DNA of 64,000 bases from a virus (IMGVR_UViG_3300036791_001355:11506-75505); one strand, 5' to 3'. Positions 4,552-60,623 are shown, counted from the stretch's first letter. The notes: a model not told the origin generated them from the letters alone. Numbers and translations: made by a program.

Positions 4552-4708
4552 TCAGCACTCCTCGGAAGCCTTCGAGCGACCCTTTGAAAAAGCTCCGCGC
4601 GTCCTACGCCTTTGCACGGGGACGGGAGAGGGCGCGCGGAGAGGTGCATGGAAGAGGAACCCTGCACAGATGACCGCCTGCGCACACGCGGATGCGCGCC
4701 AGGAGTCC

Positions 4709-4729
4709 GGTCACGCAAGTTGCGTGACC
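4709..4729. promoter_or_regulatory. perfect palindrome GGTCACGCAA-G-TTGCGTGACC upstream of the portal gene
   Basis: 10-bp arms with a 1-nt centre, in the intergenic gap. Confidence 0.5.
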
Positions 4730-4745
4730 CGTGGCGCGAATTGGG

Positions 4746-5951
4746 TTAGCGACCGGGCGGCAGTCCCACCACGGTGCCGTTGCCATCGACGACGGGCGTC
4801 TGGCCGTGCCACTCGCAGTCAGGGCCGAAGGTCAGCACGCCGCCCTGTAGTTGAATGAACGTATCATTACAGTCGAGCTGCATGACGGTGCCGGTAACCA
4901 CGTTGTTGTCGAGCAAGCCCTTGTCCTGATATTCCAGCCCGTAACTGATGACGCGGCGATTGGGCGAGTTCGCCGGCTTGGCCAGGGTCGCGTTCCTGAC
5001 CTCCAAGAGGCCGCCGTTGCAGCAGTCGATCAGGGAAGCTGTCGAGTTCCGCATGGTGCCGCCATCGACATAAGCGTGCCACGCCCGCGACTTGAGCGAG
5101 TAGCCCTCGGTCGGATCGACGCTGTCGGTGTTCTTCAGTCGTACTGCGTAACCATCACCGACATAGATGTTGTGGGTGTAGCCATCGCCAAGACCGTTAT
5201 GCTCTAGCAAGCAATTCACGATGGTGATGTCCCACATCGGCCCGTTATCGGCGGCGACGCCGTTCTGATTGTTGCTGAAGTGACAACCCTCGACGGTGCC
5301 GTAGCCGGCGGCATCGCAACGTACCGCCGCCACCAGCGTATGGCTCTGCTCGCGAATGCCGGCGCCGCTGATGGTAAAGCCCTTGATGTGCCATGCCGGG
5401 GTCGAGGCGACAATCGCCGCCTTGCCCTGATAAACCAGTTCACTAACCGGAACATCACTGAAATCCCAACGAACGCCGGTGCCATCGAGCAGCAAGTTCT
5501 TGTAGATCACGAACGATTCGCGCGGGGTCGCGGGCGGCACGACGACAGTGTCGCCGTCCACCGCCGCGTCAATCGCCTGTCCCACCGTGGTGTAGGGCTG
5601 CCCCACCGTCAGCGTGCGCCCCGAACTGCCGGGTGCCACCGCAGGCAGCGACGGGGCCGGCGGCGCGCCGGGGTTGGCACCCGATGATGGCGGCTCGACC
5701 GGCGGTTGCTCCACGGGCGGCTGCTCAATGGGGGGCTGTTCGCCCCCGCCGATGTCGAGCGGAGCGCTGAAACTGGCCACCACGCCGTTGTCAAACGTGA
5801 CCGTGCCCGCCAGGGTCGGCACCTGTGCCGCCGCGCCCTGGGCCACTTCCTTGATGGTGGTATCAAATAACCCCGTCACGCCATCCGTCAGCGTCAACGT
5901 GCCAGAGAGTCGCGCCGTGGTAGTCGCCAGCGGTTTGGGTGGCTTGGCCAT
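4746..5951 (-). CDS. right-handed beta-helix (pectin-lyase-like) protein with Pro-rich linker
   Basis: TVGQAIDAAVDGDTVVV, NNQNG, NGLGDGYTHNIYVG, LKSRA; start chosen at ATG 5951 after CAGGAG. Confidence 0.7.
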   Translation of the reverse strand: MAKPPKPLATTTARLSGTLTLTDGVTGLFDTTIKEVAQGAAAQVPTLAGTVTFDNGVVASFSAPLDIGGGEQPPIEQPPVEQPPVEPPSSGANPGAPPAPSLPAVAPGSSGRTLTVGQPYTTVGQAIDAAVDGDTVVVPPATPRESFVIYKNLLLDGTGVRWDFSDVPVSELVYQGKAAIVASTPAWHIKGFTISGAGIREQSHTLVAAVRCDAAGYGTVEGCHFSNNQNGVAADNGPMWDITIVNCLLEHNGLGDGYTHNIYVGDGYAVRLKNTDSVDPTEGYSLKSRAWHAYVDGGTMRNSTASLIDCCNGGLLEVRNATLAKPANSPNRRVISYGLEYQDKGLLDNNVVTGTVMQLDCNDTFIQLQGGVLTFGPDCEWHGQTPVVDGNGTVVGLPPGR

Positions 5952-6058
5952 CGCTTTCTCCTGTGGGTTTGGTTCCACCATCCGAGGCACGGCATGATGG
6001 CCAGGGGTCACCCCCTTCGTGGCTGACCGATGCCGCCGCTTACCCATGGGAGAACGCC

Positions 6059-6343
6059 ATGATCACCCTCACCGTTGCGGGCGAGTTCACCCCCCTGGAG
6101 CTAGCCGCATTCCTCTGCCTGATCCAGGGTCTGGACCGCGCCCGCAGAGAAGACAAGCACTGGAGCGTGAATGTTGACGACGCCGACGGCGCCACGGTAC
6201 GCGAGGCCGAGGCGCTGCTGCGTCAGACCCCGCCGCCCGCCGTCGATGCCCACGAAGCCATGGTGCGCATCACCGCTGCCGGCGAGGTCGCTCGAAACCT
6301 CGCTCCCGAGGTTCGCACCCACCCCAACAAAGGAGGACACTGA
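6059..6343 (+). CDS. hypothetical protein
   Basis: GGGAG RBS then MITLTVAGEF; C-terminus contains a copy of the 24-nt element. Confidence 0.55.
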   Translation: MITLTVAGEFTPLELAAFLCLIQGLDRARREDKHWSVNVDDADGATVREAEALLRQTPPPAVDAHEAMVRITAAGEVARNLAPEVRTHPNKGGH

Positions 6344-6541
6344 ATGGCCCGCCTGCTGGCCTGGATCAGCATCGACGGCAACAGCGCCCTGGCCTGCTAC
6401 CTCAGCGAGACCGCCCAGGAGCGCCAGCCCGCGACCCAGTGGTTCCCCACCGCCGCCGCCGCCAAAGCCTGGATTCAGCACGAGGCAGCGCGGCTCAAGG
6501 TCGGCATCGCTTGGCTGGATCGTCACACCCGGCGCGGTTGA
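6344..6541 (+). CDS. hypothetical protein (65 aa)
   Basis: AGGAGG RBS, abuts the previous stop. Confidence 0.6.
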   Translation: MARLLAWISIDGNSALACYLSETAQERQPATQWFPTAAAAKAWIQHEAARLKVGIAWLDRHTRRG

Positions 6542-6738
6542 TCGCCGTCTTCCTCCAGCAGGGTCAGGCTGACCCAGTGGCCCGAGGCAAAGGCCCGCCG
6601 CAGATAGTGCCCGTCATCGTAGAGCAGCAGCGCGCCGCCGCCGCAGCACTCCACCATATGCGCCTCGATCACCTCGTGGACGGTGCCCCTATTCTCCGTG
6701 GTGGCCCCCCAGTGCGGCAGTTCCACCCGGTAGCGCAT
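6523..6738 (-). CDS. hypothetical protein (71 aa)
   Basis: tightly packed with minus-strand neighbours. Confidence 0.5.
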   Translation of the reverse strand: MRYRVELPHWGATTENRGTVHEVIEAHMVECCGGGALLLYDDGHYLRRAFASGHWVSLTLLEEDGDQPRRV

Positions 6739-6740
6739 GG

Positions 6741-7303: not shown

Positions 7304-7304
7304 C

Positions 7305-7424
7305 AAGTCGCTCGCAGCCTCGCTCCTGAAGTCGCTCGCAGCCTCGCTCCTGAAGTCGCTCGCAGCCTCGCTCCTGAAGTCGCTCGCAGCCTCGCTCCTG
7401 AAGTCGCTCGCAGCCTCGCTCCTG
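7305..7424 (+). repeat. tandem array, 5 x 24 bp (AAGTCGCTCGCAGCCTCGCTCCTG)
   Basis: five identical units read directly, no spacers; fills the gap between the TerL stop and the next ATG. Confidence 0.95.
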
Positions 7425-7427
7425 AGA

Positions 7428-8765
7428 TCAGAAGCCTTTGTTGTCGCCCAGCGCCATGGCCACGCCATAGGTGAAGCAGTCGAGCAGGTCATCGGCGCCT
7501 GAGTCCACGCCCACCCGATAGCCCACCACCTGGGCCAGCAGATGGTTCCGCGTCGTCGCCTTGTAGGTGATCACCCGGTCATAGGCGGGCTGGCTGATTT
7601 TCACCTTGCCCTGGTGCACGTAGCCGCTGACGTTGATGGCCCGCCCGTCCTTGCCCACCTTGGTCAGGTCGCTCTCGATAGGGTGCGCCCGCCAGCCGCG
7701 CCGCCGCGCCTGCTGCAGCAGGATAGTGCCGCTGTTCTTGTCCTCGATCCACGCCCCCAGGGCGCCCATGCGCGCCCGGCACTGCTTGGCCAGTTCCTCC
7801 ATGCGCTGATAGATGCCCGGCAGCCACTGCTCCAGCAGGCTGCCCTCGATCTGCACAATGTCCCAGTCGAGGATGAGCAGCGGAATGCCGAAATGACGTG
7901 ACACGCCCCAGTAGATGACGGCGGTGCCGTCGTGCTCGCTGTGGTCCTTCACGGCGGTGTCGATGGTGACGAAGATGCCATCGCAGATGGCGGGGTAGGC
8001 GGGCGCCTTGTTGTCGACCAAGAGCGAGGTCTGGGCAAAGAAGGCCGCGCCCGACCAGTCGACGAACTTGGCCTCGTACTCCTGCTCGAACACCAGCGGG
8101 TGAGTGCGCGCGCGTAAGGCCTCGATCTCGTCCTGCGGCAAATAGGGGTTATTGGCCGAGGGCGCCCAGTACTCGACAAAGCCCCACTCCTCGGGCTCAT
8201 TGCACAGGCGCCAGAAGAAGTTCTCGCTATCCAGCCCGTTGGTGTTGGAGGCGGCCAGCGCGGTGCCTTTGTAATCCAGCAGGGTCGGCTCGATGCTCTT
8301 GCGCCAGACATCGGTCATGAACGGCTTGCAGAAGGCCGCCTCGTCGACGATCACCTTGTGGTAGCGGCGGCTTCTGCCGGCGCGCTCGTTATCCAAGCTC
8401 CAGAAGTCAATCCTGCCCCCGGTCGTGGTGCGAATCACCCCGTCCATGCGGTTGGAGCGCAAGATGACCGGGCCGAGGCGCTCGACCACATCGGTGTAGG
8501 CCTCGGAGAGGAATTTATACTCCGGGGCAAACCAGCCGACGTACTCGCCGCGTATGGCGGCATCGCAGGCGATGGTCTCGCACAGCAGCGTCTTGCCCCA
8601 GCGCCGGCCGCAGCGGATCGCCTTGTGCCGCCCGGGCATGCGATAGGCCTTGAGTTGGTCGGCATGGAGCGTGGGCAGTTCCACCTCGACCTCGCGGGCA
8701 CTGTCGGGGCCGCGCCTGGGCGGCAGGTGTACGCGCTGCTCACTCTGCGGGTGGGTCTGCTCCAT
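7428..8765 (-). CDS. terL: terminase large subunit
   Basis: Walker A CGRRWGKT, Walker B VIVDEAA, FEQEYEAKF, nuclease acidic motifs IDTA, IEDK, DDLLD. Confidence 0.93.
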   Translation of the reverse strand: MEQTHPQSEQRVHLPPRRGPDSAREVEVELPTLHADQLKAYRMPGRHKAIRCGRRWGKTLLCETIACDAAIRGEYVGWFAPEYKFLSEAYTDVVERLGPVILRSNRMDGVIRTTTGGRIDFWSLDNERAGRSRRYHKVIVDEAAFCKPFMTDVWRKSIEPTLLDYKGTALAASNTNGLDSENFFWRLCNEPEEWGFVEYWAPSANNPYLPQDEIEALRARTHPLVFEQEYEAKFVDWSGAAFFAQTSLLVDNKAPAYPAICDGIFVTIDTAVKDHSEHDGTAVIYWGVSRHFGIPLLILDWDIVQIEGSLLEQWLPGIYQRMEELAKQCRARMGALGAWIEDKNSGTILLQQARRRGWRAHPIESDLTKVGKDGRAINVSGYVHQGKVKISQPAYDRVITYKATTRNHLLAQVVGYRVGVDSGADDLLDCFTYGVAMALGDNKGF

Positions 8766-9297
8766 CCGGCTCCCTGTGGTCGCTCGAAGGCTCGCTCCCG
8801 TGGTCCTCGCCGTTGGGTTCCGGCTTGGCGTCGATCACCTGCGGCAGGCCGCCCCGGATCAGGATAGTGGTGCCGCCGCCGTTGGCGTAGGTCTCGTCAT
8901 CCCGTGGCGGGCGCCACTCCGGGCCACCCTTGCAGAAGAGCCAGTATTTCTGCGCCGCCACGTTGCCGCCGAGGGCGGAGCGCACGACAGCGGTGGAGAT
9001 GCGGGCCTTGACCTCATCGAAGGCGTTGGCGAGGTCGCGGTGATAGTGCCGTTCAAGGCTCTGCTCGGTGATGCCCATGACAAGAGCGATGATGCGGTTG
9101 GTATTGCCGTTGGCGCGGAGGACTTGAACGGCGCGACGCTGTTCGTCGGTAGGTTTGAACTTCTTGCGTCCAGCGTTTTTACGAGCCCCGCCTGAATTAG
9201 CTCGTGGGCCACCGCGTCTCGATTTGGGTTTGGCAGGCGGGACGGGCTCGAACTCTGGCAGTACGGGTTGAATAGGCTCGTCGTCGCCGTCGGCCAT
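8740..9297 (-). CDS. terS: terminase small subunit
   Basis: RGGPRANSGGARKNAGRK then an HTH-like segment, GNVAAQKYWL; directly upstream of TerL. Confidence 0.8.
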   Translation of the reverse strand: MADGDDEPIQPVLPEFEPVPPAKPKSRRGGPRANSGGARKNAGRKKFKPTDEQRRAVQVLRANGNTNRIIALVMGITEQSLERHYHRDLANAFDEVKARISTAVVRSALGGNVAAQKYWLFCKGGPEWRPPRDDETYANGGGTTILIRGGLPQVIDAKPEPNGEDHGSEPSSDHREPDGADPPAE

Positions 9298-9571: not shown

Positions 9572-11124
9572 GGGTGTGGGCCTGTGGCGACATAGGCGAA
9601 CAGCGGGAGGTCGTCCTCGACGCGCTGCTTGGCCATGGCGCAGTAGGTGGGGTTGAGGTCGATGCCGATGGCGTGGCGCTGGAGTCTATCGGCGGCGAGG
9701 AGGGTGGTACCGGCGCCTGAGAAGCAATCTAAAACTACACAGGGAACCGGAGCAGGAGTTGTCCACTCCATGCGTGATCCACAGTGTGGGCATTGCCGCG
9801 CATCGGAAACGTCCTCTGACAATGAGGGCAGGTCACAATGTAGACGGGCCTCTTTGCCCCGTCGTGCTGTCTCTTTTCCATCAGTTCCAGATTGCTGAGG
9901 CGATTGTCGAGCCTGTTGCCATTCTTGTGGTGGACCACCTCGGCCGAGGTCAGAAGCCTGCCCAGCTTCTTCTCCATAACCAGCCGATGCTCCATCACGT
10001 AGCCATCGCCCGTTGCATTCGGATGGCCCTTCCGAAGAAGCATCCGGTAACCCTTTGAGGTTACTGTCCACCCCTTCGTTGTGGAGCGATTGGCCGCTGT
10101 CCACCTTTGAGCACAAAGCCTCGAACAGCATTTCTGCCTGCTGGCCACTGGCTGAAACAGGATCGCGCATTGGCTGCATTTGATCGGCTGAAGAATGCGT
10201 CGTCCTGGCATCCTTATGGTCTAGCACGGCCTCACATTTGACACACCGGTATTCATGGCATGGGCAGGCGGGTGTCCAGCCGGTGGTGAGGCGTTGTATG
10301 GGCTCGTTGTAGGCGTTGCCTGCGGTGCCGCGTGAGTGCCGTGCCTCTTGCTTTGGTCCCATCCAGTGATCGTGGCGGCGGTAGGTGATTTCGCTCTGGC
10401 GTATCCATGGGGCACCGCACTGGGCACAGCAGCCGTGCTCGGAGGTTCCGGCCTTGATGCATCGCTCGGCCAGTTCGGGCGGCATGGTGGCGAAGTGAGC
10501 GGCGCTATAGGAGGTGGTGGCGATGGTCCACACGTTGCGGGCGTTGGCGCCCAGAGGATTGAGGGTGACCATGGCGTCCTTGCCGCCCAGGGCGATGCGG
10601 GCGCCGCGCTCGCCGGTCATGGTGTGGCTGAAGCCGTTCACCGGGGAGCGGGCGCGCTCGATGCTATTGGCTTGGTGCGGCTCGCGGATGGCGTCGGCGT
10701 CGTAGAAATATCTGGGCTGTTTGGTGAGCAGGAAGATGTGCTCGTGGGCTGAGGTCGGGCGGTCGGTGATGGATTCCGGCATGGGATTCGGTTTGCACCA
10801 GATGATGTCCGAGCGCAGGTACCACCCGTCCGCTTGGAGCGCGAGGGCGACGCGGGCGGGCATTAGCTGCAGCTGCTTGTTGGTGTGGCCGTCGCCCAGG
10901 TTCAGCCACAAGGTGCCATCGGGGCGGAGAATGCGGCGCACCTCGCGGAAGACCGCGACCAGGGTGGTGATATAGGCCTCTGGCGTAGCTTCCAAGCCGA
11001 TCTGGGCGGCCATGCCATAGTTCCTGTGCCCGTAGTAAGGGGGGCTGGTGACACAGCTGTGGACGCTGCTTGCGGGCAGGGTGGGCAGGATGGTGCGGCA
11101 GTCGCCTTGCAGCAGGCGATTCAC
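9568..11124 (-). CDS. DNA methyltransferase, N4-cytosine/N6-adenine (beta-type order), with large in-frame insertion
   Basis: TSPPY catalytic motif, [44 protein letters not shown] motif; GTG start at 11124. Confidence 0.9.
9735..10211 (-). CDS. HNH homing endonuclease nested in an alternative frame of the methyltransferase
   Basis: CxxC...[42 protein letters not shown] (HNH_3-type), C-terminal CPHC. Confidence 0.85.
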
Positions 11125-11177
11125 AGGAGCGAGATTTCGAGCGACCCTCGCTGCGAGAGCGAGGCTTCGAGCAACCC
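11124..11177 (-). repeat. dimer of the 24-nt element joined by CAGCG
   Basis: minus strand GGGTTGCTCGAAGCCTCGCTCTCG-CAGCG-AGGGTCGCTCGAAATCTCGCTCCTG; fills the gap before the MTase. Confidence 0.85.
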
Positions 11178-11180
11178 CAC

Positions 11181-20247: not shown

Positions 20248-20805
20248 TCAAGATGTTGTTGTCCCGGCTGAACTTCGGCCGTGATAGTACTCATCCAACC
20301 CGTCCAGCGCGTGGCGCAGCCACAGCAGCGCCAGCCCGATATGGCCGAGGCCGTGGGCGTCCTCGAACTCGCGCGGCGGACGGTTGTCGAGCAGCACCCA
20401 CCACAGCACGGTGTCGCGGCTGATGCCGAGCATCAGGCGTACCCGCTGCACGGCGCGGATGGCCCGGCGCTGGCTCTCGGTGGCGCCCTGGTAGCCGCCG
20501 CCCCGGGCGGTCAGCAGCAAGGCCCACGAGCAGGCGGTGCCGGCGCTGGCGCGGCTGAGATCGTCGAGGAAGCGGTTGGCGGCGTCGAACTGGCGCTTGC
20601 TGACGAGGTCGCTGCGGTAGAGGTCGTCGAGCACCGACCAGCGGCGGGCGCCGCGCACCAGCGCCTTGATGGCGGGGTCGGGATCGGCGCGGTCTTCCAG
20701 CACGGCGGCACCGGCCCCCCGGCTTTCCAGTCGACCCTGCCGCGTGACATGCACGCTAGGGCCATAATCCGAGGCGTGGAAGGCAGGAAGACGCCGCCGC
20801 TTCAC
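20248..20805 (-). CDS. putative late-gene regulator (DUF6456/Q-like)
   Basis: LDDLYRSDLVSKRQFDAANRF...LRHALDGLDEYY; last gene of the replication operon. Confidence 0.5.
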   Translation of the reverse strand: MKRRRLPAFHASDYGPSVHVTRQGRLESRGAGAAVLEDRADPDPAIKALVRGARRWSVLDDLYRSDLVSKRQFDAANRFLDDLSRASAGTACSWALLLTARGGGYQGATESQRRAIRAVQRVRLMLGISRDTVLWWVLLDNRPPREFEDAHGLGHIGLALLWLRHALDGLDEYYHGRSSAGTTTS

Positions 20806-22659: not shown

Positions 22660-23501
22660 AGCGAGTTCCACCCGATGCCACCGTTGCGGCGTGGCGTATG
22701 GTTGTCGAACTTACCCTCACGGATCTGCACCAGCTTCTTTGGGCTCAGCAGGAAGTCGAAATCGGCCCTCCAGGCGCGCGAGCCACCGCCTCGGCAGAAA
22801 TCCGAAGCTTCCAGCTTGCGGATCGCCTCCAGCATCCCCTCCGGGCCGTGCTCCTTCAGCCGCGCTCGCAGATGGACCCGACGCTGCGGCGTGAGCATGC
22901 GGACCACGGGCATGCCGCTCCGCTTGGCCATCTCGTTCCAGGCCTCGACGATGGGCTGCTCGTCCTCCGCGCCCTGTGGTTTGGCTTTGGTCCGCGCTGG
23001 TTTGGTTTCTGGCTCTGGCGCGGATTCGGGAAACAATTCTGCCGCGCGGTCCACGAGAGTCTGCGAAGCAGACTCGGTATCTTTCTTCCTAAGGGGGTAC
23101 TTAAGGGGATTGGGTGCATCTCTTGCACCCTTGGGGTGCACCTGTTGCACCCTTGGCTTCGTCATGGGTGCAGTGGTTGCACCCCTCATGGGTGCATGTG
23201 TTGCACCCTTGCTTTCGACGGAATGGCCCCGCAACAGCGTAAAAATCAAGTGTTTCCCCTCCATTCTGACACGCAGAAGAGGGTCTGGCGCATTACTTAG
23301 CGCCCGCACCGCGTACTGCACCGTGCGCTCGCTCAGCCCGGTGTCGTCTCGGATGGTGCCAATCGCGATGGGGCCTTCACGGTTAAACCTGTCCACCCGC
23401 TCGGCGACGGTGACCAGCACCCACCGCTGAGTCGAGGGAAGATTGCGCTGCCGTGCCGCCTTGATGGCCCAGGCGCAGTTGGGACAGGACGCGGGAATCA
23501 T
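22656..23501 (-). CDS. replication initiator (N-terminal wHTH; lambda O-like layout)
   Basis: DTGLSERTVQYAVRAL HTH; internal iterons; C-terminal WN...LTPQRR...WRADFDFLL..EGKFD. Confidence 0.8.
   Translation of the reverse strand: MIPASCPNCAWAIKAARQRNLPSTQRWVLVTVAERVDRFNREGPIAIGTIRDDTGLSERTVQYAVRALSNAPDPLLRVRMEGKHLIFTLLRGHSVESKGATHAPMRGATTAPMTKPRVQQVHPKGARDAPNPLKYPLRKKDTESASQTLVDRAAELFPESAPEPETKPARTKAKPQGAEDEQPIVEAWNEMAKRSGMPVVRMLTPQRRVHLRARLKEHGPEGMLEAIRKLEASDFCRGGGSRAWRADFDFLLSPKKLVQIREGKFDNHTPRRNGGIGWNSL
23112..23208. repeat. four palindromic iterons GGGTGCA-N5-TGCACCC; probable replication origin
   Basis: copies at 23112, 23134, 23166 and 23190 inside the initiator gene. Confidence 0.8.
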
Positions 23502-24659: not shown

Positions 24660-25262
24660 TCACGCCCCCGGTGACGGGGTGACGACCAGCACCAGCGGCG
24701 GTTTCCTGCGCGCCCGCTTCTGGTGCTCCTCCGTCCCCGGCAGCGGCGGCTGCTTGCGGCGGCGGCGAGTGCGCGTGGCGGTGACCTGTTCGGTGTCCGG
24801 CCCCAGCTGCCGCGCGATGGCTGCCTGTCCCCGGTGCCACCCGGCCAGCCACGCCAGCGCCAGTTCCGACCCCGACGGGTAGGGCGCATCGGCGATATCG
24901 ACGCCCTCGCAACCGGCCCGGTAGCCCCGGTCCTCGGCATCCCACGGGTCTTCGCCCCGTACCGAGGTCACCTCCGTCATGCCAGCGAAGAGATCATGGG
25001 CGCCAATCGGAATGCGGCGCAGGCCGAGGTAGTAGAGGCGGTGCCGCAGGGCGACGCGAACCTCGTCGCCGTCGCGCTTGCCATCCCTGATGGCGGCTTT
25101 CAGTTCGGTGACATTCTCGCCCGCCACGCGGGCGCGCTTGTAGAGATTGCGCAGCACGCCCTGCTCTTCCTCGACCCGTCTCTGCTGCGCCATGATGTCA
25201 CGCAGCCAGCGCAGCGAGTCTTGCGGGTCCAGATCGACGGAAACGGTTGTGGCATCTGACAT
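24660..25262 (-). CDS. GapR/DUF2312-like protein with C-terminal GYxAG...PY...WLxGW module
   Basis: helical N-terminal half (LRNLYKRARVAG...LKAAIR); GGAGGGG RBS. Confidence 0.5.
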   Translation of the reverse strand: MSDATTVSVDLDPQDSLRWLRDIMAQQRRVEEEQGVLRNLYKRARVAGENVTELKAAIRDGKRDGDEVRVALRHRLYYLGLRRIPIGAHDLFAGMTEVTSVRGEDPWDAEDRGYRAGCEGVDIADAPYPSGSELALAWLAGWHRGQAAIARQLGPDTEQVTATRTRRRRKQPPLPGTEEHQKRARRKPPLVLVVTPSPGA

Positions 25263-26064: not shown

Positions 26065-27288
26065 ATGACCACGAAGAAAGAAGTGGCGACGGCGGCCCCT
26101 GTGGTTCCTGCCTTGCCAGAAGGTGCGACCAAGTCGGCTTCGCTGATCGACATCATGGCACCAGTGCTGGCGGCGCTTTTGCAGCGCGAGAATCCGAACA
26201 TGGATGCGGTGGACCGGGCCATGGCCATGGCCGAGCGGCTGGAGTTCGCGCGCCGGGAACAGGAGTTCAAACAGGCCTTCGCCGTTATGTGGCCCAAGCT
26301 GCCGCAGATCGCCAAGAAGGGTGACGCCAGCCTGGGCGGCAAGGGCGGCTACAAATACGTGCGCGAAGAAGACGTCATGGAGGAGTGCAAGCCGATCATG
26401 GAAGACCATGGTTTCGGCCTGTCCGCCCAGCCGGTCGAGCAGGATCTGAAGACGGGCACACTGACCATGGAAGTCGAACTGATTTTCCGGAATGGCTTTT
26501 CCAAGCGCGCGCGGATGAGCGGCTACGCCGATGCCGGACCCGGACGCAACGCGCTGCAGGCAATGGGCTCGGCCCAGACCTACCTGACCAAATACCTGAC
26601 TAAGGGCCTGCTGGCATTGGTCCAGAGAGGCGCCGACGACGACGGCAACCGGGTAGGCCTGCGGGAAAGCGGCGGCGACTATATGGGCAACGCCAAGACG
26701 CGCCCTGGCGGCAGCGGCAGCAGTGACCGGCTGAATACCCCGCCCCAGGATCTGCCCGGCGACCAGCCAGCCCCACCGCCGCCCAAGGCCAAGGCGGCCG
26801 CAGCGCAGTGGATCGACCCCGATGGCATCGTGCATGACAACGCCAAGGCATGGTCGCTGGCCTTCAACGAGCACTGGGCGATGGCCAGCCCGGAGGAGCG
26901 GCTGGAACTGCACGAGGAGTATGGCGCCACCCTGCTGGCGGCCCGCAGCGCTGACCGCGAAGCGGCAGTCATCCTGGCGGGGGTGGAGAACAGACGCGAC
27001 CAGAGCGAGACCGAATCGGGACCGACAGATTCGCCCGACTCGAAGCCCGACTCGGCCAAGCTCAGCGACGATGAACAATGGGCCGGAAGAGTGCCCGACG
27101 TGTTGAAACGCCTGCCCAGGACCAACGAAGGCCGCGTGAATTTCGCCAAGCTGCTGCAAGAAGCCACGGCCAGGATGCAACGGCTCAAGAAAGCCAGCCC
27201 CACGGTCTACGAACAGACCCGGGCAAAGTTCACGGCGACCAGCGAGAGGATAGATTTCGCCCCCGCCAACAAAAGGGCGACACCGTGA
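26065..27288 (+). CDS. erf: Erf-family ssDNA annealing protein
   Basis: LPQIAKKG...YKY..EEDV...KPIM..HGF, QAMGSAQTYLTKY...DDDG; follows Gp157. Confidence 0.85.
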   Translation: MTTKKEVATAAPVVPALPEGATKSASLIDIMAPVLAALLQRENPNMDAVDRAMAMAERLEFARREQEFKQAFAVMWPKLPQIAKKGDASLGGKGGYKYVREEDVMEECKPIMEDHGFGLSAQPVEQDLKTGTLTMEVELIFRNGFSKRARMSGYADAGPGRNALQAMGSAQTYLTKYLTKGLLALVQRGADDDGNRVGLRESGGDYMGNAKTRPGGSGSSDRLNTPPQDLPGDQPAPPPPKAKAAAAQWIDPDGIVHDNAKAWSLAFNEHWAMASPEERLELHEEYGATLLAARSADREAAVILAGVENRRDQSETESGPTDSPDSKPDSAKLSDDEQWAGRVPDVLKRLPRTNEGRVNFAKLLQEATARMQRLKKASPTVYEQTRAKFTATSERIDFAPANKRATP

Positions 27289-35647: not shown

Positions 35648-35702
35648 GCCTCAGGCCTCCCGGGAGCGAGGTTTCGAGCGACCCTCCCTGGGCGCGGTGG
35701 GG

Positions 35703-36029
35703 TTAGCTCCCTAGCTTGGCTTCCAGCGCCGCGATGCGCTGAATCAGCGGCTGCACCATGCCGTCGAGATAGGCTTTCGGCACCGCGTCGTAGGGCTCGA
35801 CCGGTGCCGTGCGGGGCAGCTTCAGCGGCTCGATCTGGCTGGGGTCGGGCAGGGTGGGAGGCGGCGGCGGATCGGGCACGTTGCCCTCGGCCAACCACGC
35901 CTCGTATTCGGCCCGGTCACGGTTAGCCGGATCGTTCGGGATGTGGGCCTGATCGGCGACGCGCAGGATGGTGTCCGAGACTTTCGTCGGGTCCATGCCG
36001 TCGCGAATCTGCTGGTAGGGTTGGGCCAT
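35703..36029 (-). CDS. tail-fibre-associated/assembly protein
   Basis: IPNDPANRDRAEYEAWLAEGNVPDP motif, typical downstream of fibre genes. Confidence 0.7.
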   Translation of the reverse strand: MAQPYQQIRDGMDPTKVSDTILRVADQAHIPNDPANRDRAEYEAWLAEGNVPDPPPPPTLPDPSQIEPLKLPRTAPVEPYDAVPKAYLDGMVQPLIQRIAALEAKLGS

Positions 36030-36030
36030 G

Positions 36031-37092
36031 TCAGATGTCCGCCGAGGCTGTAATGGTAAAATTCATACAGTTGTATCCAGCGGCATTAGCATTGGCTATC
36101 ACAGTCACGCCGCATCCAAGAGGCGTTAGGCTCACAAATGATGTTGGGCTACCTGTAGTGCCATAGTTGTTTAACATTACACACGTTGCACTAGCTCGCA
36201 TAGGCACCGGAAAATAGATACTGGAATATAGTTGCCCGCCCGCGGCAGCCGCATATAAACCGTTTACTGCTACCTGCGTAGGGCAATAAAACCGTTGGCA
36301 GCGTTGAAGGTCTGTCATCCAGTCAATTTTCTCCAACGGAGTCATTACATTTCCGACCTCAAGCTGCATACCCCAGAGTTGCACTACGCCGCTCTGCACG
36401 CCGATATTGCCAGCACTAGGACCGTTAGTGGTGCCGCTAGAGAAAAATATCTGAATTATCGTGAAGTCAGTACCGAGATTAGTGCCTAGCGTCTTCCCAA
36501 CTGTAGTCGGGATCGTCATTGTTACGCTGTAGCGAGCAGCGCTCGTGGTGATTGGCACGGCGGTGCCCGTGGGAGAAAACGAAACTGCGGTTGACGGTGA
36601 TCCTCCGGTGCCAAAAGACTGATAGCCATTGATGCCAAGCTTCAGGGCCGCGCCAGCCGACGCCAAGAAGCTCAGGGTCACGGTCTTGCCGCCAAGTCTG
36701 CGCACGTTCTCTATCGCGTGAACGATTTCATTGTATGCACCGGCTGCAGCATTGCCGGTGAAGGTATTCTGAAGAAGATATTGCACGGCGTCATCGCCAA
36801 CTACCGAACGCCAGCCATCAGTAGCTTGGATCAGATTAACGCTGGCCGTATCCGACGAGACATTCAGCGCCCACCGATCCGCCGTATAAGTCGCGGTCGT
36901 GGTCCACGGCCCAGCCCCACGTTGCTGGATATTGAAATACGGGTTATGCAGGAGGTTCCGTCCCGCATTATTAACGAACTGCGCCGCCGGGCTGCCACTA
37001 ACCCACTTCACCCCATCGTAGGTGTAGGTCAGCCCGTTGGAGCCGAGGACGGTCTGGCCGATGGTCAGCGGGGGATTGGGGAAATCGAACAT
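36031..37092 (-). CDS. putative receptor-binding/carbohydrate-binding tail protein, paralog 3
   Basis: GRNLLHNPYFNIQQRG..ADRW...GKTVTLSF...QLEVG...DLQRCQRF...ASADI. Confidence 0.7.
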   Translation of the reverse strand: MFDFPNPPLTIGQTVLGSNGLTYTYDGVKWVSGSPAAQFVNNAGRNLLHNPYFNIQQRGAGPWTTTATYTADRWALNVSSDTASVNLIQATDGWRSVVGDDAVQYLLQNTFTGNAAAGAYNEIVHAIENVRRLGGKTVTLSFLASAGAALKLGINGYQSFGTGGSPSTAVSFSPTGTAVPITTSAARYSVTMTIPTTVGKTLGTNLGTDFTIIQIFFSSGTTNGPSAGNIGVQSGVVQLWGMQLEVGNVMTPLEKIDWMTDLQRCQRFYCPTQVAVNGLYAAAAGGQLYSSIYFPVPMRASATCVMLNNYGTTGSPTSFVSLTPLGCGVTVIANANAAGYNCMNFTITASADI

Positions 37093-37095
37093 GGG

Positions 37096-38361
37096 TCAGA
37101 GGTCCGCCGACGCTGTCCAGTTAAATACGCCATAACCACCACCTGTCGCTGTGACAGCAACCACGCAAGTAAACCCAGTAACGTCGTTATCAGCCATCCT
37201 CGCCCCAGAACAATTCGAATAGGCTGGGGTGCCTATCACTGCCGTTGTTGGTGCTGCTCTCATCTGTACAGGAAGGCACCATGTGTTTCCTACCGTGCCT
37301 CCAGCCGAGCTGTTGCTGAAACAGACAACATACTTTCCTGTTTGGAAAAACCGTTGGCAGCGCTGAAGATCGAGCATCGGATCGATTTTCTCTAACGGCG
37401 TCATTACGGTGCCGACCTCACACTGGGCACCCCACAAGCTGACGGTACCGGACTGCACCCCAATATTGCCTGCGTTGTTCGCGTAGGTACTCCCGGAGGA
37501 TAGCCAGAACGCCACCTGCAAGTAGCTGTCATTGTTGGTGCCGTAGGTCATGCCAGCCGTGCTCGGGAGCGTGGCGGTCACGCTGTACCGCCGCCATGTC
37601 GTTGTGAGTGCGACCGGTGTTCCGGTGGGCCGGATCATTGCAGAGGGCGATCCGCCAGTACCAAAGAGCAGCAAATTGCCAACGCCCACTGACAGCGGCG
37701 TCGCGCTGCACATTGCCCAGAAACTGGTAGTGATCGTTTTGCCAGACAGACGATGAAGATTCTCTATCTGTTGGATTATCTGATGGTAATCGCCTGCGGC
37801 ACCAGTGCCGGTAAAGGTATCGACCACCTTATAGAGCGCTGCCTCATCGCCGATGGCGGCACGATCAGCATCGGTCATCGCGGTCAGGCTCATGCTGCCG
37901 CTACCGCCGCTCCACCCGATGCTCCAGCGATCAGCCGTAAATCCGGGCGTCGTGAAGGAAGTACCGCGCTGCTGAATATTAAAATATGGATTGTGCAGGG
38001 CATTCCTGCCGACGTTATAGCCGCTCTGCGCGCTGGTGACCCCGGTCACCCATTGCGCGTTCTGGCGCAGGTAGGCGTTGGCGTCCTGCGGTGCGTCGGC
38101 CAGCGTGCCCTGCGGGGTGGCGGGCACCCATTGCGAGCTGTTACCATCGTTGTAGTACAGCATCAGGGCCAGCCCGATGCTGTCCCACCAGAGCTGCCCG
38201 TTGGCCGGATTGGCGGGCGGGCTGTCGCCGACCGCCAGCGCGTTGCCGCCCGTCACCAGCCACTTGGTGCCGTCGTACAGCCAGGAGGTGGCGCCGTTCG
38301 GGCTGGTATAGGTCTGGCCAGTGGTGACCGGCGGGTCGGGGAAGTTGAGGGCGCCCGACAT
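37096..38361 (-). CDS. putative receptor-binding/carbohydrate-binding tail protein, paralog 2
   Basis: same core motifs plus LWWDS and ADAP N-terminal modules. Confidence 0.7.
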   Translation of the reverse strand: MSGALNFPDPPVTTGQTYTSPNGATSWLYDGTKWLVTGGNALAVGDSPPANPANGQLWWDSIGLALMLYYNDGNSSQWVPATPQGTLADAPQDANAYLRQNAQWVTGVTSAQSGYNVGRNALHNPYFNIQQRGTSFTTPGFTADRWSIGWSGGSGSMSLTAMTDADRAAIGDEAALYKVVDTFTGTGAAGDYHQIIQQIENLHRLSGKTITTSFWAMCSATPLSVGVGNLLLFGTGGSPSAMIRPTGTPVALTTTWRRYSVTATLPSTAGMTYGTNNDSYLQVAFWLSSGSTYANNAGNIGVQSGTVSLWGAQCEVGTVMTPLEKIDPMLDLQRCQRFFQTGKYVVCFSNSSAGGTVGNTWCLPVQMRAAPTTAVIGTPAYSNCSGARMADNDVTGFTCVVAVTATGGGYGVFNWTASADL

Positions 38362-43059: not shown

Positions 43060-43814
43060 TCTGTCTCCTTGATATCCTCGCGTATCGGGTCGGCTTCATG
43101 TACCGCGAGATAGCTCATGAAGCAGGGAAGCAGGACGTAGCCGCGCTCTTCCAGCCACGCGCGCAGCGCCGCGTCGTCGCTCTTGATCTTCTCGATCAGC
43201 ATCACGGGATGGAAGGTGCGTAGCAGCGCATTGGCGCCCTGCAGCACCGCCAGTTCCATGCCCTCGACATCGAGCTTGATGAAATCCACCCGCAGGATCG
43301 GCACTTCATCCAGCGGGATCGACGGCACCGGCATGGTGCGGCTGATGTCCTGGCCGATGTTCTCGCCAGGACGGTCCTCGCCCAACTCGACGCTGCCATA
43401 GCTGCCCGGTTGGTCATAGTCGGGCTGCGGCACATCGACCCAGCCGACACGGTCGCTGAGCACGTTCAGACGCGCGCTGGCGTTGGTCAGGTTGTTGAGG
43501 CAGATGTTGCCCGCCAGGGCATAGAACAGCCGCTCCTGGGCTTCTATGGCCAGCACACGGCCCCATCCCTGCATCACCCGTGCCATGGCCAGCGTGTGGG
43601 TGCCGATATTGGCCCCGGCATCGACCGCCATGACGCCGTCGCCCCGGTATTTGCGCCGCAGCCGCAGCAGTTCGCAGCACAGCGACACCTCGGCGGGATC
43701 GAAGCTGCCGGTGTCCAATAGCTGGCCGCCAACGCCTTGCCAGCCGGGACCGTAATCGAGCCGGGGCACCAGCATGCTGCCGTGCTCGGTGGCGGCCAGC
43801 ACAAAGGCGATCAC
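43056..43814 (-). CDS. FkbM-family methyltransferase
   Basis: VDAGANIGTHT, AIEAQ, VDFIKLDVEGMELAVLQGA...PVMLIE; GTGA overlap start. Confidence 0.9.
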   Translation of the reverse strand: MIAFVLAATEHGSMLVPRLDYGPGWQGVGGQLLDTGSFDPAEVSLCCELLRLRRKYRGDGVMAVDAGANIGTHTLAMARVMQGWGRVLAIEAQERLFYALAGNICLNNLTNASARLNVLSDRVGWVDVPQPDYDQPGSYGSVELGEDRPGENIGQDISRTMPVPSIPLDEVPILRVDFIKLDVEGMELAVLQGANALLRTFHPVMLIEKIKSDDAALRAWLEERGYVLLPCFMSYLAVHEADPIREDIKETE

Positions 43815-44971
43815 TCCGCTGCCTGCGGCACCTCGGGCGCCGCCTGGGCGAACCACTTGGCGGTCTCCATCAGCTGCTCGGGGTTGATGTCAGCGATGCA
43901 CGCCGCCGCCTCCGCGTGCTCGGCTTTGCGACACGTTTCGATACTATCATGAAGGCGGTGGCATGGCCAGCACGGTACCCGCTCCTGATCGGCGTGCAGC
44001 GTCGCGGTGTAGCGCCAGTGCTTGGTGATGTTTTCCTCGCTGGCGTGGCTCAGCAGCACGATCTTGCCAATGTCCCCGCGCATCGCCACCGACCACATCG
44101 GCCCGGTGTCGGGGCCGATCACCAGGGTGCACAGCCGCAGCTGCGACAGCGTGCGCCGGATCGGCCATAGCGGCTCGGGCTTGTCGGCGAGCTTGATGTG
44201 CACCGCATCGGGTTCCACCGACCAGCCTTGCGTCTCGGTGCCGGGCGAAATGGCCTGATGCAGGCCGGCGAGCGAGCCGTTCTGCGCCTCCACTTGCTCC
44301 ATGATCGCTTTCGAGATGGCGAAGTCACGCGGCCCGGAGCCGAACATGATGACCGGCCAGCCGATTTCCTTGATCAGCCGCGCCACCACCATCGACGAGT
44401 AGGGATAGATTTTGTCGATGCGGCTGCCCGAGACGCACCAGCCGATGACCTCGGTGCTGCCGAGCTTGCGCTGCGTCGCCAACGCTTTGTCCCGCTCCTG
44501 CTCGGTGGGGAAAAAATCGGGCGCGAACTGATAGGGCACCTCGGCGATGTCGTGCACGTACTCGAGATAAGACCGCCCGCACAGCTTGCGACGCATGGAA
44601 TCCGGCCAGTTGAAAGCTGTCTGTGCCTGCACCAGGGCCAGCGCTACCTCGCAGGAATGGGAGAGATGCACGAACTTCGCCACTTCGCGGGCGCGGGCGG
44701 TGAACCATTGCTGCCATTCGATGCCGCCGTGCTGCGGCAGGTCTTCCGGCTTTTTGAGCACCAGCTTGGCGATGTGCGGGTTGTGCTCGAACACCGCCGA
44801 TGCCGGTTCCTGGGTGATCACCTCGACGAGATAATCGCGCGCCAGCAGGGGCAGAATCGACGAGGCGATGAGGTTATCGCCGATGGAGCCCATGCGGCAG
44901 ACGGTGGCCCACTGGGTCGCTCGAAAGCTCGCTCCCGCAGCGAGGTCGCTCGAAACCTCGCTCCCGGTCAC
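43811..44971 (-). CDS. glycosyltransferase family 9-like protein
   Basis: RMGSIGDNLI, FEHNPHI, LVIGPDTGPMWSVA, CWPCH...C. Confidence 0.8.
   Translation of the reverse strand: MTGSEVSSDLAAGASFRATQWATVCRMGSIGDNLIASSILPLLARDYLVEVITQEPASAVFEHNPHIAKLVLKKPEDLPQHGGIEWQQWFTARAREVAKFVHLSHSCEVALALVQAQTAFNWPDSMRRKLCGRSYLEYVHDIAEVPYQFAPDFFPTEQERDKALATQRKLGSTEVIGWCVSGSRIDKIYPYSSMVVARLIKEIGWPVIMFGSGPRDFAISKAIMEQVEAQNGSLAGLHQAISPGTETQGWSVEPDAVHIKLADKPEPLWPIRRTLSQLRLCTLVIGPDTGPMWSVAMRGDIGKIVLLSHASEENITKHWRYTATLHADQERVPCWPCHRLHDSIETCRKAEHAEAAACIADINPEQLMETAKWFAQAAPEVPQAAE
44914..44966 (+). repeat. dimer of the 24-nt element joined by CAGCG
   Basis: GGGTCGCTCGAAAGCTCGCTCCCG-CAGCG-AGGTCGCTCGAAACCTCGCTCCCG, at the 5' end of the GT9 gene. 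Confidence 0.9.
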
Positions 44972-53484: not shown

Positions 53485-53756
53485 TACGGAGTCTGCTCGA
53501 ACTGCTGGGTATCGGTGCGAAACACCAGCGTCGATTGCTGGAAGTAAGGCCCGACCAGATTGATGTCGCCCTCGGCTGGGGAGCCGATGACAGGAACGCT
53601 GAACATCAGCACATTGTTGGTGGCGACGCAGTTAAGAAACCAGCGCTGGCCGAACAGGTTCCACATCACGACCATCTGGTAGACGGTGCCGTCCAGGGTG
53701 GCACTGAAGGCAAAGGTCTCCCTCGGCGAGGGCTGGAACTGGGTGTAGGTGGTCAC
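53484..53756 (-). CDS. small baseplate protein
   Basis: F.ATLDG..Y....WNLFGQRW...INLVG.YF. Confidence 0.7.
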   Translation of the reverse strand: MTTYTQFQPSPRETFAFSATLDGTVYQMVVMWNLFGQRWFLNCVATNNVLMFSVPVIGSPAEGDINLVGPYFQQSTLVFRTDTQQFEQTP

Positions 53757-53779
53757 TTCGCTAGCCTCCGCTCCCGAGG

Positions 53780-54559
53780 TTATGGCTTCAGAAATCCGCC
53801 GAATGTGCCGACGATATTGCTCAGCGTGCTGGCGCCCGCGACCGGCGGCAACGGCTCTGCTGTCACACCGCCCGGGCCGAGGCCAGTGACATTTGGCAGC
53901 GTCTGGCCGATGTTGATGTCAGGCGTTGACATCGAGGAGCTATTGATCTGCAGGCCGGCGGTGACTTTACTGTAGAAGCTGTTCTGCACCGCGTCCGCCT
54001 CTTCCTGGGTCAACAGCGGCTGCTGAAAATCCAGCTGCCACGTATGTTGCACCTGATTCGACTCGCCGCCGGAAATGTCGCGCATCGCCGTCATGATGCA
54101 GTTCAGATAAAGATAGCTCGGCGTGGCGATGGTGTAGGTGCCACCCTGCGCATTGTGCTGGAAAAGTACCGACTGCATCGTCATCATGGTGGCGAGCTTG
54201 GCGGCATAGCCCAGCCGGTCGCGCACCGGGCAGATCATCTTCAGGCTGATTTCCAGCGGCTGGCAGATCAGCGCGTTGGCCGCCACCCGCTGATTGGCGA
54301 AGGGATACTGGGCGATCTGGTTGTTGATCAGCGTGGCGCCGCCGATGGGGGCGAAGTGAGCGAAGAAGTCGTCCAGTTCGACGTTCTCTCCGCCCGAGGC
54401 GAGGCTGGTGACGAGATGCAGCGGCTCGGTCAGGAAAATCAGCGGAAACATGCCGCCGCCAATCCAGTTCACCAGCGAGGACGAGCCGGTGAGGAAGATC
54501 GGCGACAGCTGGAAGGCCAGCTTGAAGGCATAGCCGAGCGGGGGGAGCGAACCGGACAT
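53780..54559 (-). CDS. tail tube initiator-like baseplate protein
   Basis: start MSGSLPP by TGATG coupling; YPFANQ.VAANA, HN..GGTY...TPS, WQLDFQQPL. Confidence 0.7.
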   Translation of the reverse strand: MSGSLPPLGYAFKLAFQLSPIFLTGSSSLVNWIGGGMFPLIFLTEPLHLVTSLASGGENVELDDFFAHFAPIGGATLINNQIAQYPFANQRVAANALICQPLEISLKMICPVRDRLGYAAKLATMMTMQSVLFQHNAQGGTYTIATPSYLYLNCIMTAMRDISGGESNQVQHTWQLDFQQPLLTQEEADAVQNSFYSKVTAGLQINSSSMSTPDINIGQTLPNVTGLGPGGVTAEPLPPVAGASTLSNIVGTFGGFLKP

Positions 54560-57280: not shown

Positions 57281-57283
57281 TCA

Positions 57284-59144: not shown

Positions 59145-59159
59145 GCTCCGGTTCCCCTA

Positions 59160-59462
59160 TCAGCCAAGGGTGATGTTCAGCACCTGCGCGGCGCCGGGGG
59201 CGACGACCACGCCCTGGTTGCAGGGCCAGTTCGCCGTGTAGATGCCAACCGTGGCGGGGATCGTCAGCACCAGCCGCCCCGAGGTGGCGGCACCCGTCGC
59301 GGCGGCGTCGTAGACGGCCCCAGCGGTGCCAGCGGTGATGACATTGACCAACCCGACCCGGGCCGGGCCGGTCCGCATCACGGTGGCGGCGGAGACGCCG
59401 TAATAGGCGGATGACGCGACATCAGACGGATAGACCGACACGCGCTGGGCATATTGCGCCAT
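59160..59462 (-). CDS. small structural protein (100 aa)
   Basis: beta-rich; directly upstream of the sheath. Confidence 0.65.
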   Translation of the reverse strand: MAQYAQRVSVYPSDVASSAYYGVSAATVMRTGPARVGLVNVITAGTAGAVYDAAATGAATSGRLVLTIPATVGIYTANWPCNQGVVVAPGAAQVLNITLG

Positions 59463-59484
59463 GACTACACACTCCGGTTCGAGG

Positions 59485-59584
59485 GACGACGCGAAGTCGC
59501 GTCTTGGGGGATTCGCGCGTCGAGGCCCGCGCGCTGGCCTAACAAGCCGCGTCTTAGCGAGAACGACGCGAAGTCGCGTCTTAG
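59485..59584 (+). repeat. two copies of hairpin repeat ACGACGCGAAGTCGCGTCTTRG (family B)
   Basis: copies at 59485-59507 and 59561-59584 with a partial copy between. Confidence 0.8.
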
Positions 59585-60129
59585 CGCATGCGGCGGGCGC
59601 GGATGGACCCGGCGGCCGATACGGTGCCGCTATGCCAAAGCAACCGGCAGGAGAGATAGATCGGGGTCGCGCTGCCGGTCAGCATGCGCACCGGCCCGGT
59701 TTGCAGCTGCGTGCGCGTGCTCATGCCATTGACGATGTTGAGCATCATGACGGCGAAGTCTGCCGAGAGGTCGGGCGGCGGCAGGGTAGTGGATTGACTG
59801 TTGAGCCAGACCATCACCTCGCTGATGTCGGCCGAGGTGCCTGACGTGGCGAGATAGCCTAAGACATCCCAATCGCCCGGCGGCAGCGTCAGCGACAGCA
59901 CATCGGTGACGGAGTTGGTAGTCAGCGGCGTCGCGTTCGCCGTCAGGATGGTGGTGTAGAGCCGCTCGCCGATCTGCCCTGGCTGGGCCTCGGAGCCGTC
60001 GGTAACGCCGAGGAGCATGCTATGGGCGAGGTTGTCGATGTCACTGGCGGCGGCGGCAAAGTTCTCGCGGATCTCGGCCGAAGCCACCATCGTGCCTTCT
60101 TCGGGAATGGTGATGTCGATGGTGCTCAT
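59581..60129 (-). CDS. putative virion protein (182 aa)
   Basis: GVTDGSEAQPGQIGE, LTLPPGDWDV, IRARRMR; fibre-tip-like. Confidence 0.6.
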   Translation of the reverse strand: MSTIDITIPEEGTMVASAEIRENFAAAASDIDNLAHSMLLGVTDGSEAQPGQIGERLYTTILTANATPLTTNSVTDVLSLTLPPGDWDVLGYLATSGTSADISEVMVWLNSQSTTLPPPDLSADFAVMMLNIVNGMSTRTQLQTGPVRMLTGSATPIYLSCRLLWHSGTVSAAGSIRARRMR

Positions 60130-60623
60130 GCCGTCTCTCTCTCGATGACGAAAAACCGGTCCCCGTCATTGGCGGCATCGCCGGCACCGTTGCGGTAGCG
60201 GATGACGCGCTCGTGCACCGGCTGTCCCGTCCACTGGTCGGCCACCAGCAGGCCATCCTCGCCGACCGCCAGCAGCACGGCGGCATGCGAGCGGCCATCG
60301 ACGTGGTTGCCGTAGCGGCCATCGGCATCGAAGCAGGCGATGGCGGTGCCTCTGGCCAGCGTCGGCGTGTCCGCCACCCTGGCCCCGCGTCGCCAGTGGG
60401 TCGTCATCGGCGCGTCGGTCACCGAGCGGACGAAGGCGACACAGTGACCGCTGCCGATGCGTCGGCCCAGGCAGTGCTCATGAGCGGCGGCGACGAAGGT
60501 CACTCGAAGTCTCGCTCCCGAGGTCACTCGAAGTCTCGCTCCCGAGGTCACTCGAAGTCTCGCTCCCGAGGTCACTCGAAGTCTCGCTCCCGAGGTCACT
60601 CGAAGTCTCGCTCCCGAGGTCAT
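60126..60623 (-). CDS. BPSL0067-like Cys/His peptidoglycan amidase (endolysin candidate)
   Basis: GHCVAFVR...W.RG.RV...GTAIA.FD.DGRY.N...SHAA...V.DQW; N-terminus is the in-frame repeat (SGARLRVT)x5. Confidence 0.75.
   Translation of the reverse strand: MTSGARLRVTSGARLRVTSGARLRVTSGARLRVTSGARLRVTFVAAAHEHCLGRRIGSGHCVAFVRSVTDAPMTTHWRRGARVADTPTLARGTAIACFDADGRYGNHVDGRSHAAVLLAVGEDGLLVADQWTGQPVHERVIRYRNGAGDAANDGDRFFVIERETA
60497..60622 (+). repeat. tandem array, 5 x 24 bp plus 6 bp (AGGTCACTCGAAGTCTCGCTCCCG)
   Basis: five identical units read directly; 19/24 identical to the unit at 7305. Confidence 0.95.

Follow-up and report, generated by a model that had tools for sequence, protein, structure and literature searches.

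Mycobacterial interspersed repetitive units (MIRUs) are intercistronic repeats with short flanking direct repeats and open reading frames (ORFs) that overlap the neighboring genes (Supply et al. 1997, summarized in PMC12548453 and PMC3184786). Their insertion is described as taking place at start codons, with a −4 overlap (PMC12548453; PMC3184786). Family A, the subject of this analysis, is a short repeat dispersed over the virus genome IMGVR_UViG_3300036791_001355, a 75,505-bp IMG/VR record. The window is the 64,000-nt stretch formed by bases 11506–75505 of that record, and window coordinates are used unless stated otherwise. Like the MIRUs, family A is a gene-less short repeat that lies between co-transcribed genes in one to several tandem copies. 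Whereas MIRUs measure 40–100 nt and reside in the mycobacterial chromosome, the family A unit measures 24 nt and resides in a phage.

The genome is that of a tailed phage, uncultured and recovered from soil; it is ~80% complete (CheckV) and has a G+C content of 64%. It encodes the terminase subunits TerS and TerL, a portal protein, an ERF-type annealing protein, a Toprim/AAA primase-helicase, a CcrM-like methyltransferase, PEP-CTERM proteins, and many ORFans. A DUF6456 protein (20248–20703) and HNH and GIY-YIG nucleases are also encoded. Gene calling with a codon-usage model yields 96 genes, with a coding share of 93% of the contig. The repeat family is real, and, judging from homologous proteins and junctions, its copies are insertions at the sites that can be tested. 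The reading favored here, to which a probability of about one half is assigned, takes family A to be a dispersed, MIRU-like micro-repeat without genes of its own, which multiplied recently within one phage lineage and spreads to tolerated junctions.

A consensus search of the window recovers 17 units at ≤3 mismatches, while 100 shuffled sequences yield none. Tandem Repeats Finder (TRF) reports two perfect arrays, at 7305–7425 (5.0 units) and 60497–60622 (5.2 units). A scan of the whole 75.5-kb record with a position weight matrix returns the same sites and adds one copy outside the window (genome 8333–8356, window −3172). The family extends over nine sites in the contig plus two decayed copies, with ~20 copies in all. 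A first-pass annotation of the window, made from its sequence alone, had proposed the whole-contig scan. All of the full copies that it listed are present with their coordinates and strands, and its partial and degenerate copies (4563–4582 and 53751–53780) are both recognizable. Its remark that the 12–30 kb region is devoid of copies is true but not significant (~0.75^9 = 0.08), and the linker that it took to be the same in both dimers is nearly so, reading CAGCG at 44914 and CAGCGA at 11124. The copies, together with one small ORF that is created by a dimer, are as follows.

4563–4582, minus strand: partial copy in which the first arm and the center (GGGTCGCTCGAAGG) are kept
6285–6308, plus strand: monomer, forming C-terminal tail codons (EVARNLAP) of a 94-aa ORFan (6059–6343, plus strand)
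7305–7424, plus strand: array of five perfect units, between the TerL TGA (7430–7428, minus strand) and the ATG of a 107-aa ORFan (7303–7301)
8777–8800, plus strand: monomer that encodes GSEPSSDH within the C-terminal tail of TerS (8740–9297, minus strand)
11124–11177, minus strand: dimer (24 + CAGCGA + 24) with a 7-bp Watson-Crick hairpin at its center
11121–11180, minus strand: relay ORF of 19 codons made by the 11124 dimer, its GTG directly following the upstream TAG (11183–11181)
35661–35684, minus strand: monomer in an untranslated 55-nt spacer between the stop of a 108-aa gene (35703) and the ATG of a 546-aa gene (35647)
44914–44966, plus strand: dimer (24 + CAGCG + 24) that, read on the minus strand, adds 17 residues behind codon 2 (V-T) of a GT9/heptosyltransferase-like gene
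53751–53780, plus strand: degenerate single unit with indels that exactly fills the gap from the upstream TAA (53782–53780, minus strand) to the start of a 90-aa gene (GTG ACC, 53756)
60497–60622, plus strand: array of 5.25 perfect units, the last and partial one (AGGTCA) containing the upstream TGA (60622–60620, minus strand)
Genome 8333–8356, outside the window: monomer coding for GSETPSDH in a 1523-aa protein, within the linker that joins its NUDIX and kinase-like parts

In a BPSL0067-family gene, 120 nt of the 60497 array are inserted in frame after codon 2. Nine homologues of the encoded protein start with M-[P/T]-F-V-A, and the window protein carries exactly 40 additional residues between M-T and F-V-A. 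From the ATG, the array reads M-T-(SGARLRVT)x5 and continues in frame into the BPSL0067-family domain (NF033857, E = 2e-22). Among 68 viral loci found with a BPSL0067 gene, the array occurs in none of the 13 whose start region was inspected. In the relatives, the gene upstream of the array is followed by a different conserved gene; thus, the BPSL0067 gene is itself extra in the window. Similarly, the 44914 dimer inserts 51 nt in frame behind codon 2 of the heptosyltransferase-like gene. Sixteen glycosyltransferase homologues start two to six residues ahead of a conserved W-A-x-x-x-R-x-G-x-I-G-D motif, while the window protein begins with V-T and 17 repeat-derived residues before Q-W-A-T-V-C-R-M-G-S-I-G-D. 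This gene offers no other in-frame start, and the repeat must therefore be translated.

A third site lies between terL and its neighbor. TerL and the portal gene adjoin in 6 of 11 relatives (L015 and L023 show TTCTGATG), and the 7305 array splits the TGATG stop/start overlap that is intact there. Removal of 125 nt and one TGAT from the region gives GGCTTCTGATGG (TTCTGATGG), with the overlap as in the relatives. A 2.9-kb ORFan block that is absent from the relatives is edged by the 7305 array and, on the portal side, by the partial copy at 4563, whose decayed second arm now forms the Shine-Dalgarno region GAGGAG, 8 nt ahead of the portal ATG (4551). Thus, the check for empty sites at orthologous junctions that the first-pass annotation had suggested gives protein-level empty sites at 60497 and 44914 and an intact overlap in place of the 7305 array. 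The tiny insertion element surviving at protein termini that it envisaged is supported in substance, in a modified, MIRU-like form that does without its argument from target duplication. Beside the partial copy lies a 160-nt non-coding stretch (4583–4745) that extends from a beta-helix gene to the portal gene and contains a perfect terminator-like hairpin (GGTCACGCAAGTTGCGTGACC).

Within long co-directional gene runs, the distance to the nearest gene boundary is ≤15 nt at 7 of the 9 sites, as compared to 9.8% of random 24-mers. The placement of copies at or near gene starts and stops, noted from the outset, is therefore a real enrichment. Translated copies elsewhere occupy disordered protein tails or linkers, and orientation relative to transcription is mixed (five sites purine-sense, four pyrimidine-sense). 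None of the copies coincides with promoter- or terminator-like sites. The coding copies do keep the frame, as had been claimed, but this was discarded as evidence, being weak alone: 35% of random 24-mers from this genome, when tandemized, are open in all six frames.

The junctions reproduce the coupled stops and starts of MIRUs. The upstream TGA overlaps the BPSL0067-family ATG (60623–60621) as ATGA, and the glycosyltransferase GTG (44971–44969) overlaps the upstream TGA as GTGA. At 11124, the relay ORF begins at TAG|GTG, and its closing TGA overlaps, as GTGA, with the GTG from which a DNA methyltransferase starts (11124–11122). Such internal ORF overlaps are absent at the untranslated 35661 copy. 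Filled and empty sites at the protein level (BPSL0067 and GT9-like) and a TerL-portal overlap that is intact in relatives add to the likeness. The flanking repeats of 3–6 bp are also present in family A but share the unit's own end. Unlike MIRUs, family A occurs in both orientations to transcription, has some copies within proteins, and occupies ~11 sites in one genome. Because of its 24-nt unit, family A is regarded as an analogue of MIRUs rather than a member, the likeness being drawn from published descriptions of MIRUs.

These overlaps also affect annotation. The source gene calls for 43811–44971 and 60126–60623 have starts giving 360 aa and 125 aa, and the glycosyltransferase call, starting too late, loses the conserved N-terminal motif. 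Homologue alignments place the starts at the GTG (44971) and at the ATG (60623) or the last-unit GTG (60503), and the starts so implied at 44971 and 60623 overlap the upstream stops. Gene callers thus put the starts of repeat-bearing genes in the wrong place.

The 6-bp direct repeats reported to flank the monomers (CGAGGT, GTGGTC, and CCTCCC) are present, but two of the three have a 24-nt period and so do no more than open a next unit. The same period marks the flanks at 6285, 8777, and 60497 as partial next units; at 6285, the AGGT that opens a next unit follows, and the next ATG lies 36 nt beyond the monomer. Other flanking repeats comprise 3–6 nt: GACC (44914), TGAT (7305), GTG (11124), and GGGAGG (35661). 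The last of these, two GGGAGG 27 nt apart, amount to a duplicated Shine-Dalgarno sequence. The unit itself ends in (G/A)ACC, and at five of nine sites this sequence also stands in the flank upstream of GGGAGCG; both proven insertions (60497 and 44914) follow (A/G)TGACC. A classical target-site duplication, as first supposed, is rejected: the flanks vary in length (3–6 bp) and register and overlap with the unit consensus at its end (GACC/GGTC, ACCTC). They are better read as microhomology between target and unit end, or as a partial next unit, than as the footprint of a transposase.

The 24-nt unit contains TCGCTC twice at a 12-nt spacing. Ten distinct unit sequences have GGTCGCTCG and CTCGCTCC in common, with a 4-nt center between these arms. 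Departures from the consensus are concentrated in the center (12 of 40 positions, with 6 of 180 for the arms; P = 2e-6 by Fisher's test), and units inside one array are 100% identical. The dimers are built from two direct units joined by CAGCG(A), with a true 6–7-bp hairpin at the center. The unit itself has no ordinary Watson-Crick palindrome. However, its purine strand can form a hairpin of five G-C pairs and two tandem G.A/A.G pairs in a favorable CGAG context, which is the minimum- or near-minimum-energy fold of isolated purine-strand units (−4.6 to −6.1 kcal/mol as RNA). On the pyrimidine-rich strand, the hairpin is weak (−1.6 to +0.9 kcal/mol). Positions 2 and 23 covary in the 7305 array (G-C to A-T), and three single arm changes at paired positions are compatible with a G.U wobble on the sense strand; these changes are only suggestive of the hairpin.

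The 24-nt unit is a multiple of three and almost stop-free, such that ribosomes read through it. Depending on the site, the translated unit extends a protein at its N-terminus, forms a C-terminal tail or a linker, or makes up a short relay ORF, and pre-existing ATGA, GTGA, and TGATG overlaps survive, so that translational coupling is kept. On the favored reading, perfect arrays would arise by local amplification through replication slippage or unequal exchange. New sites would be seeded by short-homology copying (template switching or single-strand annealing) at 4–6 nt that match the unit end GACC/ACCTC, a process that the ERF-family annealing protein encoded at 26065–27288 may assist. The near-invariant arms and free center may reflect recognition, either of the strand-specific G.A hairpin or of the pair of TCGCTC half-sites, and copies would survive where a stop-free 24-nt insert is harmless. 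The copies need not have any function for the phage. In accord with the first-pass statement that no cognate enzyme is evident, the 75.5-kb contig encodes no Y1 transposase (PF01797), reverse transcriptase, or GxxExxY nuclease (PF13366).

Several points weigh against this reading. No transposition or copying event has been observed. The nearest relatives have ≤74% TerL identity, with none closer in IMG/VR or the JGI metagenomes, and provide no filled and empty alleles at the DNA level. The tenfold contrast in variation between arms and center is unexpected for a recently spread neutral element; it indicates constraint and suits a bound direct repeat or a recognized hairpin as well as, or better than, neutral decay. 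Both arrays comprise ~5 units, which could mean a required size or an assembly limit. Chance could account for the 3–4-nt flank microhomologies at 7305 and 11124, the folding z-scores do not reach significance, and the mixed orientation implies that the hairpin cannot act uniformly in mRNA.

Other bacterial repeat families share parts of this description. Repetitive extragenic palindromes (REPs), the bacterial interspersed mosaic elements (BIMEs), and the REPINs, which are associated with RAYT transposases, are likewise short (~20–40 nt), GC-rich imperfect palindromes that are found at gene ends in operons as singles, pairs, or clusters, with a conserved stem and a free loop. Unlike these, family A has no Watson-Crick palindrome (tandem G.A pairs are needed), forms direct rather than inverted dimers, lacks a GTAG-type 5′ tag, and is translated, and the RAYT-type Y1 transposase PF01797 is absent from the ~80%-complete record. 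Rickettsia palindromic elements (PMC3184786) are also small repeats inside genes that keep the frame and settle in permissive protein parts. They measure 105–146 bp and form long hairpins, whereas the 24-nt family A unit lies mostly at junctions. The features of a repeat-armed small-gene cassette of the GxxExxY nuclease or 23S IVS-like kind, in which a small nuclease or four-helix-bundle gene stands between inverted arrays, are not found either, in that PF13366 is absent and the arrays are direct without an inverted partner nearby, although PF05635 was not searched.

An alternative holds that a phage or host protein binds the units as double-stranded DNA, with two TCGCTC half-sites 12 bp apart (ten per five-unit array), and that they control late genes, packaging, or replication in the manner of iterons, centromere repeats, or stoperators. 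This proposal is consistent with conserved arms around a free spacer, the absence of significant strand-specific folding, an orientation independence that suits a DNA site, and the grouping of three copies around the terminase genes. Direct-repeat half-sites and five-unit arrays also recall iteron or ParR/omega-type sites, a likeness that favors it. Mycobacteriophage stoperators are single sites of 13–17 bp that lie in one orientation to transcription and are bound by a known repressor. Family A resembles them as a short asymmetric motif with many copies in the short intergenic gaps of a phage genome, but it differs in its tandem arrays, coding copies, and mixed orientation. Moreover, the copies sit in tightly coupled operon junctions and coding 5′ ends where promoter- or terminator-like sites do not coincide, and one lies in the middle of the 1523-aa gene. 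The units of an array, being completely identical, look more like the product of a recent expansion than like maintained sites. Neither family A nor an analogous repeat family occurs in ~1.6 Mb of DNA (0.96 + 0.66 Mb) around relatives' TerL genes, which also marks family A as lineage-specific, and no candidate binder stands out among the phage proteins examined. A binding-site function is considered unlikely.

Alternatively, the units may act in mRNA, either as a portable initiation or standby cassette, in which each unit supplies a Shine-Dalgarno-like block (GGGAG/AGGAG...GAGG) on the purine-rich strand and some variants a GTG start as well, or as a small G.A hairpin by which coupling is tuned or the message protected. 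A start codon follows within 0–36 nt of every copy but one; the 8777 monomer, for instance, is 12 nt upstream of the TerL ATG (8765). The degenerate 53751 copy provides GGAGG on the minus strand 8 nt ahead of the GTG, and every unit of the 60497 array carries GTGA. The low-energy purine-strand hairpin and the three G.U-compatible arm changes on the sense strand also fit this proposal. However, at the four pyrimidine-sense sites of nine, the hairpin is weak, as given above, and there is no Shine-Dalgarno sequence, and homologues of the downstream genes manage without the repeat. Folding z-scores range from −2.3 to +1.1 at single sites and from +3.3 to +3.7 in the arrays, which fold worse than their shuffles. 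No Rfam match was obtained in the window or in 18 loci carrying the core sequence described below. An mRNA role is accordingly held to be distinctly improbable, and a terminator or stable RNA or DNA hairpin, with no terminator-like sites at the copies, is rejected on the same z-scores.

The core of the unit, GTCRCTCG-NARN-CTCGCTCC, recurs outside this phage. It is present in 11 unrelated IMG/VR contigs, compared with none for a reversed control, and at 81 loci in GTDB genomes, where it lies within larger, lineage-specific repeats (e.g., a Nocardia element of ~130 nt or more). The 20–21-nt core is embedded in unrelated repeats of other phages, Actinomycetota, Acidobacteriota, Myxococcota, Bacteroidota, and haloarchaea. 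In an acidobacterial 1376-aa FG-GAP/TPR-type protein (L152:4264–4527), four in-frame copies of a 51/81-nt repeat contain the core and read RSESSSDR, in the same frame as the phage GSEPSSDH; a second acidobacterial metagenome-assembled genome (L137) has one copy with the same flanks. All-against-all BLAST of the ORFs neighboring 90 core loci shows no gene shared next to the core, and a literature search for the core sequence found no paper. A host-wide repeat family was rejected, there being only 1–12 copies per GTDB genome, lineage-specific flanks, and no obvious host. That the core always tips a longer hairpin is not claimed, the signal being weakly above control (mean 3.23 versus 3.00 ± 0.14).

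In one unrelated viral contig with 41% G+C (L005:3870–3960), the core lies within a non-coding gap of 250 nt, in a hairpin that directly adjoins two DnaA-box-like TGTGGATA(A) repeats, and the locus may be a replication origin. The recurrence of the core is not taken as evidence of a common mechanism. A bolder proposal is that the 24-mer is a "nano-transposon" whose sole requirement in cis is a hairpin with two tandem G.A pairs (GGAGCGAG-N4-CGAGCGAC), recognized and copied by a structure-specific enzyme. This is regarded as a long shot; if true, the spread of the core would represent a cross-domain mobilization system aimed at gene junctions.

It is very hard to credit that the five-unit arrays are repeats of the type III antitoxin or decoy RNA kind (compare ToxI and pseudo-ToxI, the latter being carried by phages), pairing with the small gene behind or countering host abortive infection. 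Each of the two arrays of ~5 short tandem units does precede a small gene, but the units measure 24 nt as opposed to 34–45 nt in known systems, also occur as monomers in unrelated genes, and, in the arrays, are read in frame as part of the downstream protein, with no terminator between array and gene. The downstream proteins, a BPSL0067-family member and an ORFan, give no PADLOC or ToxN-like match; a defense or toxin role of the neighboring genes, likewise without a PADLOC match, was also rejected.

An assembly artefact, in the repeats or at least in the arrays, is barely conceivable. One public run holding this phage DNA was found, which is probably the source, and an independent k = 31 assembly of it spans the monomers and dimers examined, whose sequences differ from one another and whose flanks are unique. 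The arrays (121–126 nt) are close to common k-mer sizes, but they leave the adjoining genes in frame. The Logan contigs end at the 7305 array, a break that is expected where a perfect repeat exceeds k, and two cycle unitigs there have depths of 31 and 21 as compared to ~18.5 in the flanks. These depths fit ~3 units better than five, making the copy number of this array uncertain or polymorphic. The doubt concerns copy number and not the existence of the repeats. One Logan contig of 22,023 nt runs leftwards from window position 7334 to ~3.2 kb past the start of the IMG/VR record and ends in a 28-nt stretch identical to 6285–6312. The phage genome is thus longer than the record and has at least one further family A copy.

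Other features of the region lie outside family A. G+C content falls to 55% at 36000–38000, compared with ~65% elsewhere, within a block bounded by the inverted copies at 35661 (minus strand) and 44914 (plus strand); this block also holds the heptosyltransferase-like gene and looks like an acquired glycan-modification island. A distinct repeat family at 23112–23208, adjoining the primase-helicase region, consists of two adjacent tandem pairs of 22–24-nt units, each a GGGTGCA...TGCACCC palindrome (TRF scores 76 and 78), which may be operators or origin repeats. The 200-aa protein encoded at 24660–25262 (minus strand) has a ribosome modulation factor domain (PF04957, E = 9e-8, residues 107–146) that could relate to host ribosome shutdown. 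Upstream of TerL, two relatives (L016 and L017) have a dispersed motif of their own, ACAGAGGA(A/G)CACCA, with 6–7 copies each, which probably represents shared ribosome-binding and start regions of early genes and is unrelated to family A.

These observations describe a phage genome open to colonization by a 24-nt repeat that settles behind start codons and on stop-start overlaps while leaving both genes unbroken. They also bear on module gain in phages, as the two arrays form the edges of accessory genes that are absent from relatives. If the arms are a recognition structure common to several phyla, an unknown mobilization mechanism would be implied. The principle of the MIRUs, namely insertion that preserves coupling, is extended to viruses and to a much smaller unit.

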